Assembly: GCA_041658225.1 (NCBI GenBank)
Contig: JBBAAN010000003.1
Span: 18,969-82,968, forward strand
Length of the DNA: 64,000 nt
Direction: 5' to 3'
From: Actinomycetota bacterium
GTDB lineage: Bacteria; Actinomycetota; CALGFH01; JBBAAN01
The position numbers were made by a program, and so were the translations under genes. The notes beneath the pieces were generated by a model, which did no database searches, had not been told where the DNA came from, and saw only the letters and a program-made list of their open reading frames with translations. Of this stretch, positions 4,419 through 23,259 are shown in pieces (the stretch's first letter is position 1; each line of letters opens with the position of its first letter).

Positions 4419-4553
4419 TTCCTTGCCCCTTCTCTTCCGGCCGGCGGCCCGCCCCCGGTCCTGGGGTCTGCCTCTCCGGCCCTGGGCCCCAAAGGGCCCG
4501 ACCGTCCCCGGCTTTGCGCCGGGGCGCCCGCGGCTGCGGGCTATCCCGTTCCC

Positions 4554-5885
4554 CTAGAACGGAAGCTGCAACGGGCCCCGGCGCCCTTTGGCGCCGGCCC
4601 CGAGAGTCTTGAGCAGCTTGCGCGCGCCCTCGAACTGCCGCAAGAGCTGGTTCACCTCTTGGGTCGTGGTTCCCGACCCTCGAGCGATGCGCGCACGCCG
4701 CGAGCCGCTGATGATACGCGGATCCCGGCGCTCGTGCGGAGTCATGGAGCAGATGATGGCCTCCACACGCGCCATCTCGGTGTCGTCGACCTGAAGATCC
4801 TTGAGCTTGCCCACCCCAGGGAGCATCCCGAGGATCTGGGACAGAGGCCCCATCTTCTTCATCTGGCGAAGCTGCGATAGGAAGTCCTCGAGGGTGAAGC
4901 TGGCCTTGATCAGCTTCTCCTGCATCTTGGCCGCCTCGGCGGCGTCCATCGTCGCCTCGGCCTTCTCGATCAGAGTGAGCACGTCACCCATGCCGAGGAT
5001 GCGGGAGGCCATCCGATCGGGATGGAAGACCTCGAAATCGGCGAGCTTCTCCCCCACGCCGGCGAACTTCACCGGTTTGCCCGAGACGCTCGCCACGGAC
5101 AGAGCCGCACCGCCGCGCGCATCGCCGTCCAGCTTGGACAGAACGATCCCCGAGAAGTCGACTTCCTTGGCGAAGGCCACCGCCACGTTGACCGCGTCCT
5201 GACCGGTCATGGAATCCACGACCAGCAAGATTTCGTGCGGATGCGTGCGCTCCTTGATCGCGCGGGCCTGCGCCATCATCTCCGGGTCGATGTGCAAACG
5301 CCCGGCAGTGTCCAGGATCACCACGTCCCGGCCCTGACGATCCACTTCGCGCACGGCAGCCTCGGCCACCACCACGGGGTCCCCCTGACCCGTTCCCGGC
5401 TCCGGCGCGAAAACGGGAACACCGGCTTGCTCGCCCAGGATCTTGAGCTGCTGCACCGCGGCGGGTCGCTGAAGGTCGCAGGCCGCCAGCAGCGGGTGGT
5501 GACCCGTTGCCTTCAAATGGTGAGCCAGCTTGGCCGCGATAGTCGTCTTACCCGAACCCTGCAGTCCGGCAACCATCACAACCGTTGGGGGCTTGGGCGC
5601 GAAGATCAGCTTGGATTGCGCGTGGCCGAGGATGCCGATCAGCTCCTCGTTGACGATCTTGACCACCTGCTGAGCCGGCGTGAGGCTGGTCCGCACCTCT
5701 TCCCCGATGGAGCGCTCGCGCACGGCGGCCACGAAGTCCTTGACCACCTTGAAGTTGACGTCGGCTTCCAGCAACGCCAGGCGAATCTCGCGCATTGCGG
5801 CATCAACGTCCGCCTCAGTCAGGCGGCCGTGGCGGCGAAGCGACTTGAACACGCTCTCGAAGCGAGCGGAGAGATTGTCGAACAC
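4554..5885 (-). CDS. ffh: Signal recognition particle protein Ffh
   Basis: NG domain (GLQGSGKTT, DTAGR) plus Met-rich M domain, 443 aa. Confidence 0.95.
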   Translation of the reverse strand: MFDNLSARFESVFKSLRRHGRLTEADVDAAMREIRLALLEADVNFKVVKDFVAAVRERSIGEEVRTSLTPAQQVVKIVNEELIGILGHAQSKLIFAPKPPTVVMVAGLQGSGKTTIAAKLAHHLKATGHHPLLAACDLQRPAAVQQLKILGEQAGVPVFAPEPGTGQGDPVVVAEAAVREVDRQGRDVVILDTAGRLHIDPEMMAQARAIKERTHPHEILLVVDSMTGQDAVNVAVAFAKEVDFSGIVLSKLDGDARGGAALSVASVSGKPVKFAGVGEKLADFEVFHPDRMASRILGMGDVLTLIEKAEATMDAAEAAKMQEKLIKASFTLEDFLSQLRQMKKMGPLSQILGMLPGVGKLKDLQVDDTEMARVEAIICSMTPHERRDPRIISGSRRARIARGSGTTTQEVNQLLRQFEGARKLLKTLGAGAKGRRGPLQLPF

Positions 5886-8508: not shown

Positions 8509-8584
8509 TGGTGGGCGCTACAGGACTCGAACCTGTGACCCCTTCCTTGTAAGGGAAGTGCTCTCGCCACTGAGCCAAGCGCCC
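8509..8584 (-). tRNA. tRNA-Val (anticodon TAC), CCA encoded
   Basis: Reverse complement GGGCGCUUGGCUCAGUGGCGAGAGCACUUCCCUUACAAGGAAGGGGUCACAGGUUCGAGUCCUGUAGCGCCCACCA folds as a cloverleaf. The anticodon loop is CUUACAA. Confidence 0.9.
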
Positions 8585-8796
8585 TTGCCTGAATCCTCTT
8601 GCCGGCCGCACGAGGATAGGGGCGCCCGCAAACAAGTGTCAATGAGTCGGCAGGCTAGGGATAGCGTCACCTCTGAGCCAGCAGAGCACCTGACCCGAGA
8701 TCCCACACCGAAAGGCGAAGGGCTCGTAGTGTCTTCTTGAGGACCAACCCAAGGAAGCGACCACGTGCCCGAGCTCACGATAGCGGTTTCGGCGTC

Positions 8797-17388: not shown

Positions 17389-19350
17389 CTAGCTGCGGGG
17401 CACGCCTCCGAGGCGCTCCACGATGCGCGAGGCCGTACGCGTGGCAAAAGCCATGATCGAGATCTGCGGGTTCACCCCGGTGCACGTCGGGAAGACGCTC
17501 CCGTCGGCCACGTACAGCCCGGGCACCTCGTGCGCCTCGCCCCAGGAATCCACCACACTGGTCTGCGGATCCGAGCCCATCCGCGCGGTGCCCATGGGGT
17601 GAAACGCCATGAGCTTGAACACCCCGGGTGAGAAGCGGGCTTCCCGCAGCGCCTGAAGATCCGCCTGTGACTTCACCGTCGGGAATCCGGGAAGGCCGGT
17701 CAGCACTTCCTTCGCCCCCGCGGCCAGGAAGATCTCCGCGATGATCCCCATGCCCTTGGCGGTGCGATCGGCGTCGTTGCGATTCAGCGAGTAGGAGATC
17801 AGCGGTCCGCCGATACCCCTGTGCACGGTGCCCTTGGAGGTGTCCGAGACCATCAGCCCGCACGAAGCGAGGTAGCGGTAGCGGGACAGGGCCTCCTTGT
17901 AGGCATGACCGACGCCCGGCATGATCCCCGAACTCACACCCGGGTAGCTGGATGTGACCTCGAGCATGATCTCGTCGCTCTCGGAAAACTCATCCACCAT
18001 GAACGGCTGAAGCGTTCCGCGCCAGGGGAATACGGGCTCGTCGAAAACCGCCCCGATTCCCGCGGCCGGGTGCATGCGCAGGTTCTTGCCCACCTGGCCC
18101 GACCCCAGCGCGAGCCTGCTCTGCTTGAGCAGCAAGGGAGTCATCGGAGCGCCGGCCGCCGCGACCACTGCCCTGGCGTGGACGGTCAGCTTGGCCTGCG
18201 GCTTGCCCGACTCGTCCAGCAGCCTGGCGACCACGCCGGTCGCCTGGCCCACCTCCTCGACTATCTGCTCCACGCGGGTCCGGCAGTAGATTACGGCCCC
18301 GGCCGCCTCCGCCAGCGGCAAGTAGGAGATGTTGGTCGACTGCTTGGCGTCCGATGGACAGCCGTAGGCGCACTCGCCGCAGCCCCGGCAGCCGATGATC
18401 CCTCGTGGGATCGGCCCACAGGAGTACCCGAGAGCCTTGGCGCCCACCTCGAAGCGGAGCGCGTTCTCGCCCAGAAGGTGACGCGGCGCGGGCTCTACGT
18501 GGCAGATCTCTTCCACCCGGTCAAAGAACGGCTTCATCGAAGCCGGGTCCGCGCCCTGAACTCCGCACTCCTTCCCCCAGTTGTCGAGCACGCGGTCGGG
18601 AGTGCGGAAGCAGGTGCCCGAGTTCACGGTCGTGGTTCCCCCGACGGTCTTGCCCAGAGGAACAGCGATGATCGGACGGCCGGCGGCCGCAGTAGTGCCG
18701 TTGCCGCGATAGAAGCGCCGGAAGCGCTCCCAGACCGGGCCCTCGAAATCGTCGCGGGTGAAGTAGTCGCCTTCCTCTATCACAAGCACCGACAACCCGG
18801 CCTCGGCGCATTCCTTGGCCACCGTCGCACCACCGGCGCCGGAGCCCACGATCACCACGTCGCACTGCTCGACGCAGTCGCGGGAGACCTCGGGGTAGGA
18901 GCGAGGGTGCAGACGCGGCGCCGAACGCGGCGGGTCATCGACCATGCAGTGACGGCCGTCCACGCCGATCGCCTTGCCCACCTCGGGGATGGAGCAGTAG
19001 CTGTTGCCAATCATGTACTTCAGCAGCATCACCAGGGCCCGGGTGGTCAGCAGCGGGCTGTGCTCGGCAGCCGTGAGGAATTCGGTGCGCTCCCGGGAGG
19101 TCAAGCGGGTGAAGAAGTCGAAGTACCGCGACCCGAAGGGCGCCGCTTCCAGAGCCAGGATCGCGCCCTGGACCTCAGCCCGCGTCGTTGGCTCGCAGGC
19201 GGCCAAGTAGGCGTCAACCTTCGCGGCGAGGTCCACGTCCTTCGCCCCCGGGGCGATCGCCCCCCCCGGCGGCAGCAGGGTTTCGCAGATCGCCTCGAGT
19301 GCCCGAAACGCCCGCGGCAACAGGGCCCTGGAACCGTTAGCCTTTCCCAT
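17389..19350 (-). CDS. GMC-family FAD oxidoreductase fused to an N-terminal gluconate-2-dehydrogenase-subunit-3-like domain
   Basis: VIVGSGAGGATVAKECAEAGLSVLVIEEG Rossmann motif and a GMC C-terminal region. The N-terminal ~150 aa resemble the small subunit of gluconate dehydrogenase. Confidence 0.8.
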   Translation of the reverse strand: MGKANGSRALLPRAFRALEAICETLLPPGGAIAPGAKDVDLAAKVDAYLAACEPTTRAEVQGAILALEAAPFGSRYFDFFTRLTSRERTEFLTAAEHSPLLTTRALVMLLKYMIGNSYCSIPEVGKAIGVDGRHCMVDDPPRSAPRLHPRSYPEVSRDCVEQCDVVIVGSGAGGATVAKECAEAGLSVLVIEEGDYFTRDDFEGPVWERFRRFYRGNGTTAAAGRPIIAVPLGKTVGGTTTVNSGTCFRTPDRVLDNWGKECGVQGADPASMKPFFDRVEEICHVEPAPRHLLGENALRFEVGAKALGYSCGPIPRGIIGCRGCGECAYGCPSDAKQSTNISYLPLAEAAGAVIYCRTRVEQIVEEVGQATGVVARLLDESGKPQAKLTVHARAVVAAAGAPMTPLLLKQSRLALGSGQVGKNLRMHPAAGIGAVFDEPVFPWRGTLQPFMVDEFSESDEIMLEVTSSYPGVSSGIMPGVGHAYKEALSRYRYLASCGLMVSDTSKGTVHRGIGGPLISYSLNRNDADRTAKGMGIIAEIFLAAGAKEVLTGLPGFPTVKSQADLQALREARFSPGVFKLMAFHPMGTARMGSDPQTSVVDSWGEAHEVPGLYVADGSVFPTCTGVNPQISIMAFATRTASRIVERLGGVPRS

Positions 19351-20017
19351 CCCGGATTCTCCTTCCCGTCCCCGCCGGCCGGCTCCGCATGCCCAGCCTC
19401 TTCCTGGTCGACAGTCCTCTGACGGTCTTGGTGACGTAGTGCTCCAGCACGCGATCCACCTCCAGGCGCGGATCGCGCCTGCCGAATAGCTCTCGCTCGA
19501 TGAAGATGGCCAGCAGGAAGTTGGCGTACTCCCATCCCGCCACGTACGGGTCGTGCTCGATGAACTCCCCGCGCTCCATGCCGCGCGCGAAGAGCCCCGC
19601 CAGACCCGCGGTCCACACGTCCATGACCTGGGCGAGGATGACCTCCGCCTCGGCCTTGTCCATCTCGGACTGCACGATGAGGAAGCGCACGAAATCGCGG
19701 TTGGTGTGCATCAGCTCGAGCGAGGCGAGCCCAACGTCGTGCAACCCGCTTGCGGCATCTGCCTCTCCGGCCTTCTCGGCCAGTTCCCCGATCGCACTGA
19801 TCAGGTCCCCGCGCTCGAGCAGCGCGTGGAAGAGGTCCTGCTTGGTCCGGAAGTAGTGGTGGATCAGGCCACGAGTGATGCCCAACTCCCCGGCGACGTG
19901 GTCAAGGTTGGTGGCTTCGACCCCGCGCCTGGAGAAGATCCGCAGGGCGGCATCGAGGATCTCGCCTCGGCGCGCATAGGCTTGCCGGGCGCGGGCCGTG
20001 GTCGGGCTGATGGCCAT
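19337..20017 (-). CDS. TetR-family transcriptional regulator (overlaps the GMC gene start by 14 nt; probable operon)
   Basis: N-terminal HTH ...GVEATNLDHVAGELGITRGLIHHYFRTKQDLF. Confidence 0.85.
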   Translation of the reverse strand: MAISPTTARARQAYARRGEILDAALRIFSRRGVEATNLDHVAGELGITRGLIHHYFRTKQDLFHALLERGDLISAIGELAEKAGEADAASGLHDVGLASLELMHTNRDFVRFLIVQSEMDKAEAEVILAQVMDVWTAGLAGLFARGMERGEFIEHDPYVAGWEYANFLLAIFIERELFGRRDPRLEVDRVLEHYVTKTVRGLSTRKRLGMRSRPAGTGRRIRDGKG

Positions 20018-20031
20018 GCCGGGAGTCTATT

Positions 20032-20053
20032 ATTGACTGACGCGCCAGTCAAT
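20032..20053. promoter_or_regulatory. Perfect 8-6-8 palindrome ATTGACTG-acgcgc-CAGTCAAT in the tetR upstream region; candidate TetR operator
   Basis: Seen in the sequence, 15 bp upstream of the tetR start codon and about 45 bp upstream of the ncRNA -35. Confidence 0.45.
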
Positions 20054-20097
20054 CAACTTCTCGGGCAACGCAGAAAGAATCCCAGAAAATATCCCTC

Positions 20098-20126
20098 TTG
20101 ACAGCCCCCTTGCGCTCACCTATCTT
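20098..20126 (+). promoter_or_regulatory. Near-consensus sigma70-type promoter: TTGACA, 17-nt spacer, TATCTT
   Basis: TTGACAgcccccttgcgctcaccTATCTT; predicted TSS about 20133-20135 on the plus strand. Confidence 0.5.
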
Positions 20127-20133
20127 TTCGCTC

Positions 20134-20471
20134 GTCGGCGGCATCCATCCGCGAGGAAGGACCGGCCGAAAGGGACGGTGCAAGGCCCCTCGGGGTCGTG
20201 GGCTGATAGCGTCGCGGGTCTTCTTTCGGGGAGGCCACCCCTTCGGGGGTAGTGCACGTGAGAGCCAAGTGCCGGACCGAGGATGGGGTCCCGAGAAGGA
20301 CCGAAGGCGGAAACGCCGGCGGCCTACTCGGGGCCCTTCCTTTTGCACGGCTATCTTGGGAAGCCCGGCCCGTGGACACCGCCGGTCACGCGCCAGCGCC
20401 CGTTCCGCTTCCACCGGGCGGAGTCCCCCGGCCCACCTGCTCCTCACGAGGCCCTTCAGGTCGGGGCCTTT
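20134..20471 (+). ncRNA. Candidate ~340-nt structured non-coding RNA of unassigned class
   Basis: A 430-bp gap between convergent genes holds no plausible ORF (the track ORFs are Arg/Pro-rich junk). It contains several stable tetraloop hairpins: CCCC-UUCG-GGGG at 20239-20250, GCG-GAAA-CGC at 20307-20316, and GGCCGAAAGG. A long-range complementarity pairs GGACCGGC (20159-20166) with GCCGGUC (20382-20388). It has its own promoter and ends at a GGCCC-N8-GGGCC-UUU hairpin. Confidence 0.45.
20450..20471. terminator. Bidirectional intrinsic terminator-like hairpin (GGCCC uucagguc GGGGCC UUU) between the convergent ncRNA and ACT gene
   Basis: Seen in the sequence; U-tract only on the plus strand. 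Confidence 0.4.
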
Positions 20472-20473
20472 GG

Positions 20474-20868
20474 CTACGCCGGTTGCCCTCCGACGGCCCG
20501 CCGCGCGCCGGCCACGTCGTCAACGCCGATGATGAGGTGCTTCTCGCCCGGCCGCTCTCCGGCCATGTACAGGGAGCGGATGTTCACCCCCGCATCCGCC
20601 AGTTGGCGCGCGTACGAAGCCAGCGCCCCCGGCTCATCGTCGAGGCTCACCAGTAGCACCTCGCGGCACTCCTGCACCTTGGCCTTGGCTTCCCTCAAAG
20701 CTTTGAGCGCGGTGTCCGGGTCGTCCACCACCACGTGGACCTGGCCCTTTCCCGAACGAGTGGTGACGGCGGCTGTTCTTATATCCACGCCCGCTCTGCC
20801 GAGCGTCTCGGCAAGTTGGGCGAGGGTGCCCGGTCGATCCTGGATGGAGACTACGATCTCGCACGACA
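20474..20868 (-). CDS. Tandem ACT-domain protein
   Basis: MSCEIVVSIQDRPGTLAQLAETLGRAGVDIRTAAV... plus a second ACT repeat (LVSLDDEPGALASYARQLADAGVNIRSL). GGAGG RBS upstream of the ATG at 20868. The ORF-track N-extension is spurious. Confidence 0.75.
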
Positions 20869-21108
20869 TGGTGAGCCTCCGGCGGCCGATGAGCCAGCAA
20901 GACAAACGTATGCGCACCGGAGGCGAACGGCAAGCCTTCCCTTGGGACCTCACCCATTCCGATCCCGGCATCCGCTGTCCGGCCAACCCAGCATCGCAAA
21001 GAGTCCGACACCGCGGCCATCGGGGTCGCCCGCGCAACCGTACGAGTTGGGAGGTCAGAAACCGCTCCGGTAGACTGGCTCCCGATCACCCCGAACGGAG
21101 GCCGGCCA

Positions 21109-23259
21109 ATGCCCGACGTCGTCCAAGCGCACTCAGAGCGTGAGCAGCTCTCAGCACACCTACAGCGCTTCATCAGCGCCAAGTCCTTCGCACTGATCGG
21201 CGCATCCAACGATCAGGCCAAATGGGGCTTTCGGATACTCAGCAACCTGATCGGCGGCGGTTTCCAGGGGCGCGTGTACCCGGTCAACCGGAAGGAAACC
21301 GAGATCCTCGGCCACAAGGCATACCCGGACATCGCATCCCTTCCCGAGGTCCCCGACATAGCGCTCATCGCGCTGCCCGCCTCACAGGCGGTCCAGGCCC
21401 TCGATGAGATAGGCCGCTTTGGCGTTCGCTCGGTAGTGGTGATCACCGCCGGCTTCGCCGAGGCCGGCAATCGCCAGGGAGAAGAGGACCTCGTCGCGGT
21501 GTCCCGCAAGTGGGGAATGGCTCTGGTGGGCCCCAACTGCATGGGTTTCTTCTCCTCGCGCGCCAATATGCACGCTCTGATGTCCAACTGCCGCCCCAAC
21601 CACGGCGGAGTCTCGTTCGTCTCCCAAAGCGGCAACGTCGGCACTGAGGCCATGCTGCGCAGCCACCTCCATGGAGTGGGTTTCTCGCTGATGTTCTCCA
21701 TGGGCAACAGCGCGGTCCTCGACTCCGACGACTACCTGCACTTCCTGGCCGACGACCCCGGAACCCAGGTCATCGCCATGTACCTGGAAGGGGTGCGCCA
21801 CGGCGAGGACTTCCTCGACGCCCTGAGATACGCCGCGCGCCGCAAGCCCGTGGTGGTGACCAAGGGCGGGCGTTCGGCTCCGGGCTTCCGGGCGGCCAGC
21901 TCTCACTCGGCGGCCCTGGCCACCCCAGAGGCGATCTTCTCCAGCCTGGTGAGGCAGGCAGGGGGGACACTGGCCGGAACGGTCGAGGAGATGATGGACG
22001 TCGCCACGGCCCTGGACCTCGCTCCCCTGCCACGCGGCTCTCGGGTGGGCATCCTGACGTGGGGTGGGGGCTGGGGTGTGCTCGCCGCCGACGCCTGCGC
22101 CGACAACGGCATGGAGGTCCCTCCTCTTTCCGACGCCACGCGCGCGGCGCTGGACCAACTGCTGCCTTCGTTCTGGAGCAAGGACAACCCCGTCGATCTG
22201 GTCGGCAGCCTGGATCACACGGCGCACATGAAGATCCTCAAGGTGATGGCCGAGGCTGAGGAGTTCGACGCGCTGATCGTCCTGGGACTACTAAGCTCGC
22301 CCGACCCCTATAACCCGAATCCAAACGATCTGATGGCCGCCGTGCATATGTACTGGGGGGCGGAGGTAACCGAGGAAATGGTCAGGCTTGCCAAGGAGTT
22401 GGGCAAGCCCATGATCGGTGTGACCATCTCCGGCGGAATGGCTCCTCCTCCGGAGGCCGAAGGCCGGCTTCCCGTCTACCCGACGCCCGACCGGGCCGTG
22501 AAAGCCGCCGCGCGTCTGGTCGACTACTCCCGCTACCTCGCCCGCAAGAGCGAGCCGCCCGCCGAGATCGCGGTTGACCGCGACAAGGTCGCGGCCCTGC
22601 TCGCCTCCGCGCCCTCCGGCACCAAGCTCTCCGAGAGGGAGTCGCTCGAGATTCTTGCCGCCTACGGTATTCCCACCGTGTCATGCGAGCTTGTCGACTC
22701 GGAGCAGCAGGCCATGGAGGCCGCGCGCCGCCTGGGATTCCCGGTGGTGCTCAAAGCCGGCGGGCGCGGTATCGCCCACAAGACCGAGCGTGGGCTGGTG
22801 GCTGCCGGTATCGCCGACGCGGGTGGGCTTTCCGCAGCCTGGGCTTCGATCAATTGCAGGCTCGGCCCGGGCGAGAAGGCCGAGGGCCTCATGATCCAGC
22901 CGATGCTGTCTTCCACCCGCGAGTTCACGCTCGGGGTGGTGCGTGACCCTGCCTTCGGCCCGTGCGTGATGTTCGGCATGGGCGGCATCTACGCGGAGGC
23001 ATTGAAGGACGTCGCGTTCCGGCGGGCGCTTCTCAGTCTCGAGGACGCGCAGGACATGATGGACGAGGTCCGGGCGGGGGCCCTCCTGAGCGCGATGAGA
23101 GGCCAGCCCGCAGTGGATTGCGAAGCGCTGGCCTGGGCGTTGGTCAGGCTTGGGAAGCTGGCCCTGGACTTCCCGCAGATCGCGGAGTTGGACGTCAACC
23201 CCATCCTGGTGCCCGAAGGCCGCCCGGTTGCCGCCGACGCGCTGATCGTCATCGGCTAA
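21109..23259 (+). CDS. Acetyl/acyl-CoA synthetase (ADP/NDP-forming), fused alpha-beta (CoA-binding, succinyl-CoA-synthetase-like and ATP-grasp domains)
   Basis: 716 aa: FALIGASNDQAKWG CoA-binding N-terminus and C-terminal ATP-grasp region. GGAGG RBS. Confidence 0.85.
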   Translation: MPDVVQAHSEREQLSAHLQRFISAKSFALIGASNDQAKWGFRILSNLIGGGFQGRVYPVNRKETEILGHKAYPDIASLPEVPDIALIALPASQAVQALDEIGRFGVRSVVVITAGFAEAGNRQGEEDLVAVSRKWGMALVGPNCMGFFSSRANMHALMSNCRPNHGGVSFVSQSGNVGTEAMLRSHLHGVGFSLMFSMGNSAVLDSDDYLHFLADDPGTQVIAMYLEGVRHGEDFLDALRYAARRKPVVVTKGGRSAPGFRAASSHSAALATPEAIFSSLVRQAGGTLAGTVEEMMDVATALDLAPLPRGSRVGILTWGGGWGVLAADACADNGMEVPPLSDATRAALDQLLPSFWSKDNPVDLVGSLDHTAHMKILKVMAEAEEFDALIVLGLLSSPDPYNPNPNDLMAAVHMYWGAEVTEEMVRLAKELGKPMIGVTISGGMAPPPEAEGRLPVYPTPDRAVKAAARLVDYSRYLARKSEPPAEIAVDRDKVAALLASAPSGTKLSERESLEILAAYGIPTVSCELVDSEQQAMEAARRLGFPVVLKAGGRGIAHKTERGLVAAGIADAGGLSAAWASINCRLGPGEKAEGLMIQPMLSSTREFTLGVVRDPAFGPCVMFGMGGIYAEALKDVAFRRALLSLEDAQDMMDEVRAGALLSAMRGQPAVDCEALAWALVRLGKLALDFPQIAELDVNPILVPEGRPVAADALIVIG

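Follow-up and report, generated by a model that had tools for sequence, protein, structure and literature searches.

The 456-bp gap between a tetR gene and an ACT-domain gene is, with slightly better than even confidence, predicted to encode a compact non-coding RNA of about 211 nt as a gene of its own. All coordinates refer to the window, i.e. the whole stretch of 64,000 nucleotides that was analysed. In the proposed model, a housekeeping-sigma promoter at 20098-20126, divergent from tetR, would initiate transcription near 20133/20134. The RNA would fold into a 5' stem-loop, a multi-branched domain in which UUCG caps two hairpins, and a long GC-rich hairpin capped by GAAA; the latter, together with its U-rich tail, would end transcription near 20344. 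Termination at this site (T1) would keep the transcript from entering the convergent ACT gene in antisense, and a minority of transcripts could read through to about 20471. Transcription as such, the exact ends and any function are all things that we infer. The features that generally mark an intergenic sRNA were found here through motifs and folding: a promoter and a terminator of its own, in the same orientation, within a non-coding gap. The central idea of an earlier sequence-only reading, a plus strand RNA of no known class running from promoter to terminator, is thus upheld by a rare promoter, a strong polar terminator and the lack of any Rfam match.

Locus and coding potential

The gap (20018-20473) is flanked by tetR (19337-20017) and the ACT-domain gene (20474-20869), both on the minus strand, with tetR and a GMC oxidoreductase gene on one side and ACT and an ADP-forming acetyl-CoA synthetase gene on the other. 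Public annotation calls zero genes inside it. The first plus strand gene downstream begins at 21109, the ACT gene being located antisense before it, and the plus strand upstream of the gap is without any gene that would need a terminator on that strand. The following features are located next to tetR:

20024-20052, minus strand: tetR promoter TTGACT-17-TAGACT, from a promoter scan and direct reading of the sequence
20032-20053, no strand assigned: palindromic operator-like site ATTGACTGACG / CGCCAGTCAAT (inverted repeat I7), overlapping the tetR promoter

The tetR transcript is predicted to be leaderless because 7 nt separate the end of the -10 box from the ATG at 20017. The palindrome is the sole exact copy in the 64-kb window and its centre lies 58 bp from that of the -35 box of the plus strand promoter; it belongs to the context of the RNA and is located outside of it. 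A search for a second TetR operator near the plus strand promoter found none.

The sequence-only reading had described the gap as 430 bp without a credible ORF; its length needs correcting, while its non-coding character stands. A frame-specific GC plot displayed no codon-position GC signal in 20018-20473, a Pfam search of the seven ORFs of the gap returned zero matches, and tblastn with the neighbouring genes of relatives detected no pseudogene remnants in it. A search of 1.84 billion proteins yielded no genuine homolog of a 144-aa ORF on the plus strand. The sole match (P0244, E = 1.9e-13), a eukaryotic protein with five near-identical repeats, was rejected as spurious, since the E-value results from one 31-bit match counted five times, without nucleotide similarity.

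Promoter and predicted start

Three features define the predicted initiation region:

20064-20097, plus strand: A/T-rich stretch GCAACGCAGAAAGAATCCCAGAAAATATCCCTC just upstream of the -35 box, a possible UP-element
20098-20126, plus strand: promoter with -35 box TTGACA (20098-20103), 17-nt spacer and -10 box TATCTT (20121-20126), a 10/12 match
20133-20134, plus strand: predicted transcription start, 7-8 nt past the -10 box, placed by promoter geometry

The near-consensus promoter TTGACA-17-TATCTT proposed earlier is indeed found at 20098-20126 on the plus strand, where it is one of the two best in the window: only two matches of at least 10/12 occur in the 128 kb of strand scanned (both strands of the 64-kb window). 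The other, TTGACA-18-TATCCT at 8642-8613, is located upstream of tRNA-Val, a stable RNA. Consensus scans over-predict promoters, and in an uncultured lineage they do not by themselves demonstrate function. A+T accounts for 60% of the 25 nt that precede the -35 box, to be compared with 67% G+C in the window, and the stretch 20064-20097 possibly acts as an UP-element; local G+C near the promoter falls to 48-57%. The promoter had also been said to face away from every gene. This has to be revised, since ACT shares the strand of tetR and the promoter consequently points at the 3' end of ACT. No start codon is present at or near 20133-20134, which makes a leaderless ORF unlikely.

Predicted structure of the RNA

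Folding predictions divide the transcript into the following elements:

20135-20169, plus strand: 5' stem-loop SL1, containing GAGGAAGGACCGG; MFE and centroid structures agree for both 20134-20346 and 20134-20278
20172-20278, plus strand: multi-branched junction domain with closing helices 20176-81/20269-74 and 20201-04/20263-66, from folding
20279-20344, plus strand: terminator T1, a long hairpin (20279-20342) with U-rich tail UUCCUUUU (20337-20344), from terminator scan and folding
20265-20359, plus strand: optional lower extension of T1, pairing CCAAG with CUUGG (20265-69/20355-59) and GCCG with CGGC (20271-74/20348-51), from folding

The unit 20134-20346 folds on the plus strand at -119.1 kcal/mol (z = -3.96), with identical MFE and centroid structures and an ensemble diversity of 9; the opposite strand reaches -91.7 kcal/mol (z = -1.35). 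The 5' 145 nt taken without the terminator (20134-20278) give a z of -1.56, not significantly above shuffled stability, and in these predictions the folding signal of the unit is derived mostly from the terminator hairpin. Within the full 347-nt stretch, only the segment 20230-20379 is significantly structured, with z between -3.9 and -4.5. GC skew is positive over 20140-20340 and reverses just past T1. The predicted 211-nt fold leaves almost no single-stranded run longer than 4 nt, and none of its pairs bridges more than 106 of 213 nt.

Within the junction domain, hairpins are predicted at 20184-20197 (CUCG loop), 20217-20236 (UUCG, 8 bp) and 20237-20250 (UUCG, 5 bp). The transcript had been described as dense in classic stable hairpins, and the two that were cited, C(UUCG)G at 20241-20246 and G(GAAA)C at 20309-20314, are both present, the 8-bp UUCG hairpin at 20217-20236 being an additional one. 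Their density is not unique, three special tetraloop hairpins per 350 nt corresponding to roughly the top 1% in the window. Two other elements of that description were not retained. The GNRA-like GGCCGAAAGG has a stem of only 2 bp and forms a hairpin in none of the predicted folds. The long-range helix 20160-66/20381-87 (7 bp) has an ensemble probability of zero, and complementarity of this kind is at chance level (4 such pairs compared with 4.6 +/- 2.7 in shuffles).

Terminator T1 is built on an 11-bp GC-rich core (20285-95/20327-37) topped by an upper part that is capped by the G(GAAA)C loop. The extended hairpin has a z of -6.35 and, at -42.2 kcal/mol compared with -22 to -30, is the strongest of the nine hairpin-plus-U-tail sites in the window. 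The core is formed with a pair probability of at least 0.99 in the short as well as the long form of the transcript, and three G-U pairs render the hairpin more stable on the plus strand. Because the U-tail and these G-U pairs are on the plus strand, T1 is not a canonical terminator of ACT. It is located about 210 nt downstream of the promoter and in the same orientation; that one of the two best promoter matches and the best terminator-like site of the window should be this close, correctly ordered and on one strand, has a probability of roughly 0.2-0.5% by position alone. The U-tail is partly able to pair with GAGGA (20279-83). With about 26 bp within 64 nt, T1 is unusually long for a terminator. 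Its optional lower extension, with a pair probability of about 0.87 in the 343-nt form, requires transcription past 20344 and competes with the helices that close the junction domain; these are absent from the predicted fold of the read-through transcript.

Downstream stretch and transcript length

Two features separate T1 from the ACT gene:

20345-20447, plus strand: C-rich unstructured spacer; GC skew -0.12 to -0.28, folding z > 0 on both strands
20448-20473, plus strand: weak hairpin T2 with 7 bp, a 9-nt loop and then UUUGG, from direct reading; pair probability about 0.67

The segment 20347-20473 is no more structured than shuffled sequence. The spacer could belong to ACT on the minus strand as its 3' UTR, or be a Rho-loading-like region acting on plus strand read-through, the role of Rho being conjectural. 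T2 adjoins the stop codon of ACT (20474-20476) and could just as well be the terminator of that gene. The sequence-only reading had ended the transcript in this hairpin, described as a GC-stem plus U-tract. The hairpin does exist on the plus strand (20448-20470 followed by UUUGG), but its tract holds just three U and T1 is a far better terminator. The extent of about 340 nt given to the RNA fares no better: folded as a whole, the 347-nt stretch shows no significant structure (z = -1.46), the G-rich unit that does have structure stops near T1 (about 20344), i.e. after about 211 nt, and the 130 nt that follow are rich in C and unstructured. The 340-nt boundaries are probably wrong, the predicted RNA being about 211 nt long and ending near 20344 rather than 20471.

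Comparison with known RNA families

At the gathering score, a scan of the whole window with Rfam gave no family match for the gap RNA. Rfam 15 cmscan of 651-nt and 273-nt segments with E <= 10 returned generic miRNA-type hairpin noise only, which bears out the earlier statement that the RNA could be matched to no RNase P RNA, tmRNA, SRP RNA, 6S RNA or riboswitch. ARAGORN found no tmRNA, and neither ARAGORN nor Rfam found the marks of a tmRNA, an SRP RNA or a tRNA-like RNA. A known riboswitch or cis-acting leader found no support either: no Rfam aptamer is matched and no gene follows directly downstream on the same strand, ACT lying antisense in between.

Faint echoes of the two RNase P P4 strands had been pointed out. 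With RNase P RNA of type A, the RNA does share short resemblances to CR-I and CR-V (GAGGAAGGACCGG; GAAGCCCGGCC) and a UUCG-capped hairpin; GCAAGGCC is also present in the E. coli M1 RNA. It differs from type A in having no S-domain and no equivalent of P15. No P1-P4 or CR-I to CR-V covariance match was obtained with the bacterial A and B, archaeal and type T models. The candidate 3' strand of a P4 helix (20358-20370) is located downstream of T1 and the 5' strand pairs locally in SL1. The echoes are at chance level, and their two strands are parted by a strong terminator.

6S RNA and its Ms1 counterpart required structural as well as sequence criteria. Ms1 is about 300 nt long and flanked by genes for a HAD-IB hydrolase and an 'oxidoreductase', and its homologs may share no sequence similarity with each other (PMC9130861). 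Because of this dissimilarity, sequence search alone is not decisive against Ms1. Rfam 6S models were unmatched and the predicted fold displays no rod with a central bubble; according to thermodynamic prediction, forcing the closing stem of such a rod (20154-63/20332-41) costs +15.4 kcal/mol relative to the MFE, with a probability of 0. The same closing-stem result, together with the z of the 347-nt form, speaks against an Ms1-like fold, i.e. a rod of about 300 nt with extra end hairpins. No HAD domain was found among the ten genes scanned, so a HAD-IB hydrolase flank is lacking. The possibility of Ms1, raised in the sequence-only reading, is hence not borne out by covariance models, by the closing stem or by flanking genes. 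The likeness to Ms1 and 6S is limited to general traits: those RNAs are stable and abundant, 180-300 nt in length, driven by strong promoters and encoded in intergenic stretches of more than 300 bp in Actinobacteria.

Search for relatives and strain comparison

The locus is an orphan: its only other copy was found in a 99%-identical strain, from an independent assembly and another sample. Scanning GTDB genomes and JGI metagenomes for the TetR protein yielded only partial relatives at 36-45%, and none at 50%-90% identity was found among 5.8 billion proteins. The best match of ACT is 45% identical and without common synteny. Relatives of the GMC oxidoreductase (about 55%) are located in an operon TetR-GPD-PrpD-GMC-AhpC, TetR being divergent from the operon in one of them; these loci contain no large gap and no similar RNA. 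For the gap RNA itself, searching 72,556 plasmids and 50,697 phages with blastn gave chance fragments only, an exact 24-mer search of viral contigs gave no hit, and neither nhmmer nor blastn revealed a homolog in 22 loci or elsewhere in the window. A weak 15-nt blastn match in one of these loci (L007) was dismissed, as it lies beside a tRNA gene. A covariance model of 20134-20278 (R1) had no match below E = 0.29.

In the 99%-identical strain the arrangement is the same and the fold is retained (base-pair distance 2). The gap differs by 5 changes in 473 nt and tetR by 7 in 681 nt, so that this two-strain sequence comparison gives no sign of extra constraint on the gap over tetR. Two of the five differences in this one strain keep pairing through G-U, two weaken pairs and one is in a loop. 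The first two, C20265U and A20267G, leave helix 20265-69/20355-59 paired through G-U on the plus strand only; G20450A and a deletion of G20463 weaken T2.

Alternative explanations

The unit could be a relic of a gene divergent from tetR that was lost in a rearrangement, with the promoter, the terminator and a 5' UTR in decay left over to make a functionless transcript. GPD and PrpD are missing here compared with the GMC relatives, which implies a rearranged locus, and the divergent TetR in one of these relatives, the conservation of the gap at no more than the level of tetR and the lack of significant structure in the 5' domain would all agree with decay. The gap, however, contains no remnant of the neighbouring genes of relatives, the near-consensus promoter and the best terminator of the window are both intact, and a fold as well defined as this one, with UUCG and GAAA caps, is unexpected in a decaying leader; we consider a relic unlikely. 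Somewhat less likely again is a chance arrangement without plus strand transcription, in which the hexamer pair arose in the A/T-richer tetR promoter region and the hairpin serves ACT or nothing. The over-prediction by consensus scans fits with it, as do the low local G+C, which raises the odds of promoter-like hexamers, and a tetraloop density that is merely in the top 1%. The ordered, same-strand spacing of the top promoter and the best terminator is nevertheless rare by position, and the polarity of T1 does not suit an ACT terminator.

A cis-acting regulator of ACT would use T1 as a regulated gate, read-through leading to antisense overlap ('cutoRNA') or to transcriptional interference. The order of elements (promoter, 145-nt structured domain, strong terminator and convergent ACT 130 nt further on) is suitable, the 3' strand of the helices closing the junction (20263-74) has two possible partners, one upstream and one at 20348-59, so that the fold depends on read-through of T1, and convergent overlapping RNAs are frequent in Streptomyces (PMC3765725). 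Like a riboswitch leader, the structured domain at the 5' end might respond to a signal. Riboswitch- or attenuator-gated antisense RNAs and cutoRNAs do share with the present RNA a promoter, a structured leader and a terminator facing a convergent gene; here, by contrast, no aptamer is matched and no pairing disrupts the T1 core, so that an antiterminator is not evident. The C-rich unstructured spacer, furthermore, resembles a second barrier to read-through more than a regulatory element, and the probability given to cis regulation is low. The same low probability is given to a founder of a new class in a deep, uncultured Actinomycetota lineage: a compact tetraloop-capped RNA that would be either a stable protein binder in the 6S/Ms1 niche, though of another architecture, or a leader sensing a ligand or signal, its terminator gating antisense transcription into ACT. 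The least probable is a single RNA of about 340 nt (20134-20471) related to RNase P, 6S or Ms1. The resemblance of GAGGAAGGACCGG to the CR-I/P4 5' strand of RNase P and of GGGAAGCCCGGCC to the 3' strand, a length near that of Ms1 (about 300 nt, PMC9130861), a strong promoter typical for stable RNAs and the two strain substitutions preserving helix 20265-69/20355-59, which requires a transcript of more than 211 nt, can be quoted in its favor. It is largely refuted on sequence and predicted structure by the Rfam 15 results over 273-651 nt, the insignificant folding of the 347-nt form, a 3' 'P4 strand' located past a near-certain terminator hairpin, the costly closing stem, the absence of a rod in the 211-nt fold and the lack of a HAD-IB hydrolase flank.

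Relation to other small RNAs

For the compact 211-nt RNA, a protein-binding or structural role in trans is favored because almost no single-stranded run exceeds 4 nt; on the predicted fold, we lean towards such a trans-acting role over that of a classical seed-pairing sRNA. Compared with most seed-pairing sRNAs, the RNA would be larger (about 211 nt) and more fully paired, with an unusually long terminator, and an accessible loop of C-rich or anti-SD type is not obvious. If transcribed, it would be a strongly expressed, well-folded RNA from a barely sampled actinobacterial lineage. At present it is one more lineage-specific sRNA candidate of a common sort, credible but ordinary. In well-studied actinomycetes, at least half of the sRNAs are confined to a single species. 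Its practical value lies in a corrected gene model, with the promoter at 20098-20126, the start at about 20133/4 and the end at about 20344, and in the lack of support for the RNase P, 6S and Ms1 leads. The scr/sar/svr sRNAs of Streptomyces are similarly intergenic and lineage-specific, with a sigma-70/sigma-A promoter of their own, two to three stem-loop domains and a terminator hairpin (PMC3765725); about half of the S. coelicolor sRNAs are absent from the other two Streptomyces species compared (PMC3765725).

Genomic context and coding potential

The gap between tetR and the ACT-domain gene (20018-20473, 456 bp) lies on a 106-kb contig of metagenomic origin, whose NCBI annotation reads "MAG: Actinomycetota bacterium"; the G+C content of the window is 67%. 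The neighboring genes are arranged as follows.

17389-19350, - strand: GMC oxidoreductase gene, downstream of tetR with a 14-nt overlap
19337-20017, - strand: TetR-family gene
20474-20869, - strand: ACT-domain gene (131 aa)
21109-23259, + strand: ADP-forming acetyl-CoA synthetase gene, divergent from the ACT gene

As tetR and the ACT gene both occupy the - strand, a + strand transcript of the gap would be divergent from the former and convergent with the latter. The GMC protein possesses an N-terminal Gluconate_2-dh3 domain. The tetR promoter (TTGACT-17-TAGACT, 20052-20024, -) stops 7 nt short of the start codon (ATG, 20017). A near-perfect 22-bp palindrome (ATTGACTGACG/CGCCAGTCAAT, 20032-20053), found once in the window, overlaps this promoter; tetR appears to be leaderless and autoregulated. 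A distance of 58 bp separates the center of this operator-like site, which covers tetR's own promoter, from the -35 box assigned to the candidate RNA, and a second copy is absent, so that TetR control of the RNA is not indicated.

The gap is non-coding, in agreement with the sequence-only reading, which had seen no credible ORF in it. GC content by codon position is flat over 20035-20300 and displays further on a weak pattern in the ACT shadow frame. None of the seven gap ORFs matched Pfam at E <= 10 and the public annotation calls no gene there. Comparison of the 144-aa + strand ORF with 1.84 billion representative proteins yielded no genuine relative. Its sole match (P0244, E = 1.9e-13) is a eukaryotic gene model made of five near-identical 51-aa repeats over 6.6 kb. 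It was rejected as a homolog because repeats inflate HMMER E-values, a single 31-bit match being counted five times here. The locus encoding P0244 (NCBI GCA_041146395.1, JBFNAD010000082.1; 44.6% G+C) has no nucleotide similarity to the gap.

Promoter, terminator and gene model

The best gene model runs from the promoter to the end of the strong hairpin T1 and predicts an RNA of ~211 nt, not the 340 nt initially proposed. Its elements are listed below.

20098-20126, + strand: promoter TTGACA-17-TATCTT
near 20133/4, + strand: predicted transcription start
20135-69, + strand: 5' stem-loop SL1
20172-20278, + strand: multi-branched domain with three capped hairpins
20279-20344, + strand: terminator T1
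20285-95/20327-37, + strand: T1 core stem
20310-13, + strand: upper part of the T1 hairpin, GAAA cap
GAGGA/UCCUU, + strand: flanking pairs of the T1 hairpin
out to 20265/20359, + strand: optional lower extension of T1

The near-consensus promoter is present exactly as first read. Only two sites of the whole window, both strands included, match at least 10 of the 12 consensus positions: this one and TTGACA-18-TATCCT (8642-8613, -), ~22 nt upstream of tRNA-Val(TAC). Consensus-grade promoters would therefore seem to mark stable-RNA genes in this genome. The promoter of the tRNA-Val region (8509-8642, -) has the same -35 box and the same TATC-T form of the -10 box.

The T1 core stem runs into UUCCUUUU (20337-44), the signature of a + strand intrinsic terminator. 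Among the nine hairpins with a U-rich tail found on both strands of the window, T1 is by far the strongest (-42.2 versus -22 to -30 kcal/mol). Its U-tail and three G-U pairs lie on the + strand, hence T1 does not qualify as a canonical ACT terminator. The hairpin previously taken as the 3' end (T2, 20448-70 followed by UUUGG) does exist, but it is weak and far inferior to T1. It lies directly beside the stop codon of ACT and may be part of that gene.

Folding of the predicted RNA

When the 347-nt region is folded as one RNA, its stability is not significant (z = -1.46; +0.19 for the opposite strand), which argues against a single ~340-nt molecule. In a sliding 120-nt scan, 20230-20379 alone stands out; z is -3.9 to -4.5 for the + strand and -2.6 to -2.9 for the - strand. 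The signal corresponds to a long, nearly perfect hairpin (z = -6.35). The unit 20134-20346 folds at -119.1 kcal/mol (z = -3.96, none of 200 shuffles as good), with identical MFE and centroid structures and an ensemble diversity of 9; its complementary strand reaches -91.7 kcal/mol (z = -1.35). Without the terminator hairpin, the first 145 nt reach z = -1.56, and the folding statistics thus rest mostly on that hairpin.

The C(UUCG)G and G(GAAA)C tetraloop hairpins reported earlier were recovered together with a further 8-bp UUCG hairpin, but GGCCGAAAGG forms no hairpin in any predicted fold, and a density of three per 350 nt ranks only among the top 1% in the window. The 7 bp of long-range complementarity at 20160-66/20381-87 are real, albeit at chance level and with zero ensemble probability.

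GC skew is positive across 20140-20340 and turns C-rich directly past 20345, from where the sequence is unstructured on both strands up to the ACT stop codon. The ~100 nt between T1 and this stop (20345-20447; ~75% G+C, + strand GC skew down to -0.28) have less structure on either strand than their shuffled counterparts. They could serve read-through transcripts as a Rho-loading-type site, or merely represent the 3' UTR of ACT.

Comparison with known RNA families

Rfam 15 gave no match to the gap at gathering score and, for stretches of 651 nt or 273 nt searched at E <= 10, miRNA-type hairpin noise only; ARAGORN found no tmRNA. The same program called a tRNA-Pro(AGG) at 4499-4586 (-, 88 nt, anticodon position 32), which the Rfam tRNA model does not report at gathering score and which long ORFs overlap; this call is probably a false positive.

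RNase P is not supported: no model matched, the 5' 'P4 echo' is sequestered in SL1 and the 3' echo (20358-70) is situated past T1, the core of which keeps a pair probability of at least 0.99 even in the read-through transcript. Hallmarks of Ms1 are flanking HAD-IB hydrolase and oxidoreductase genes, a rod resembling that of 6S but with additional hairpins at its ends, and binding to the RNAP core; its homologs can be devoid of mutual sequence similarity (PMC9130861). In contrast, no HAD gene is found near the candidate among the ten genes scanned, its predicted pairs span at most 106 nt, and forcing a closing stem (20154-63/20332-41) costs 15.4 kcal/mol with zero ensemble probability; 6S and Ms1 are likewise not supported. 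In view of these results the candidate is not filed under any of these families. The sequence-only reading had likewise not matched it to RNase P, tmRNA or 6S RNA; its suggestion of Ms1 is not supported.

Comparative evidence

Comparative evidence is the weak point of the case. A search of 5.8 billion proteins returned no TetR relative between ~50% and 90% identity, and the best ACT relative is 45% identical with unrelated neighbors. The GMC oxidoreductase has many ~55% relatives in Actinomycetota MAGs (L018-L022), within a conserved operon encoding TetR, a glycerol-3-P dehydrogenase-like protein (GPD), MmgE/PrpD, GMC and AhpC/TSA, which contains no large gap and no similar RNA. In the window, tetR and the GMC gene are directly joined by their 14-nt overlap, the middle genes GPD and PrpD being absent. 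No similar RNA was detected by blastn, nhmmer or a covariance model in plasmids, phages, viral contigs, the rest of the window or all fetched loci.

The sole other copy of the gap belongs to a 99%-identical strain (L006), an independent assembly from another sample with the same promoter-terminator arrangement. Five sites differ in the 473 nt upstream of tetR versus seven in the 681 nt of tetR, hence no sign of extra constraint on the gap. C20265U and A20267G keep G-U pairing on the + strand whereas the - strand pairs would break; G20285U removes a terminal G-U pair, and G20450A together with deletion of G20463 weakens T2. The fold is kept (base-pair distance 2). This two-sequence comparison is compatible with an RNA and does not constitute proof.

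Interpretation

One of the two best promoters and the best terminator-like site of the 64-kb window are found 210 nt apart, on the same strand and in the right order, within a non-coding gap, and no upstream + strand gene would otherwise need T1. We take this combination to reflect a real transcription unit. Chance features devoid of transcription are quite unlikely, as position alone would produce such a pairing in a few cases per thousand. We consider it somewhat probable that the unit is a small RNA gene in its own right, with strong transcription and efficient termination at T1. It seems unlikely that the promoter and leader are a relic of the rearrangement in which GPD and PrpD were lost. 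A cis-acting convergent or antisense regulator of ACT is decidedly doubtful: segment 20263-74 is predicted to pair with upstream sequence if transcription ends at T1 and with downstream sequence on read-through, but no antiterminator touches the T1 core. That the RNA is a 340-nt relative of RNase P, 6S or Ms1 is highly improbable.

As an independent gene, the unit would, by terminating at T1, also shield the convergent ACT gene from antisense transcription, and the C-rich unstructured spacer could act as a second, Rho-type barrier. In the predicted RNA, unpaired stretches of more than 4 nt are almost absent, which makes us lean towards a protein-binding or structural role over seed pairing; of all steps, this one is the least secure.

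In sum, the gap holds a candidate gene for an orphan sRNA that is both credible and well delimited. Lineage-restricted sRNAs are common in actinomycetes; in S. coelicolor, about half of them have no counterpart in the other two Streptomyces species compared (PMC3765725). The candidate is of modest note as it stands, and only detected expression, covarying homologs or an identified binding partner would raise its significance.

In an unrelated Actinomycetota population among the fetched loci, a HTH/Gp49 (HigA/HigB-like) pair is called at 4539-5376 in L007, L009 and L011, as opposed to L008 and L010, next to a tRNA gene (L007, 5947-6019). Should the DNA itself differ, and not just the gene calls, this would represent a variable insertion near a tRNA.
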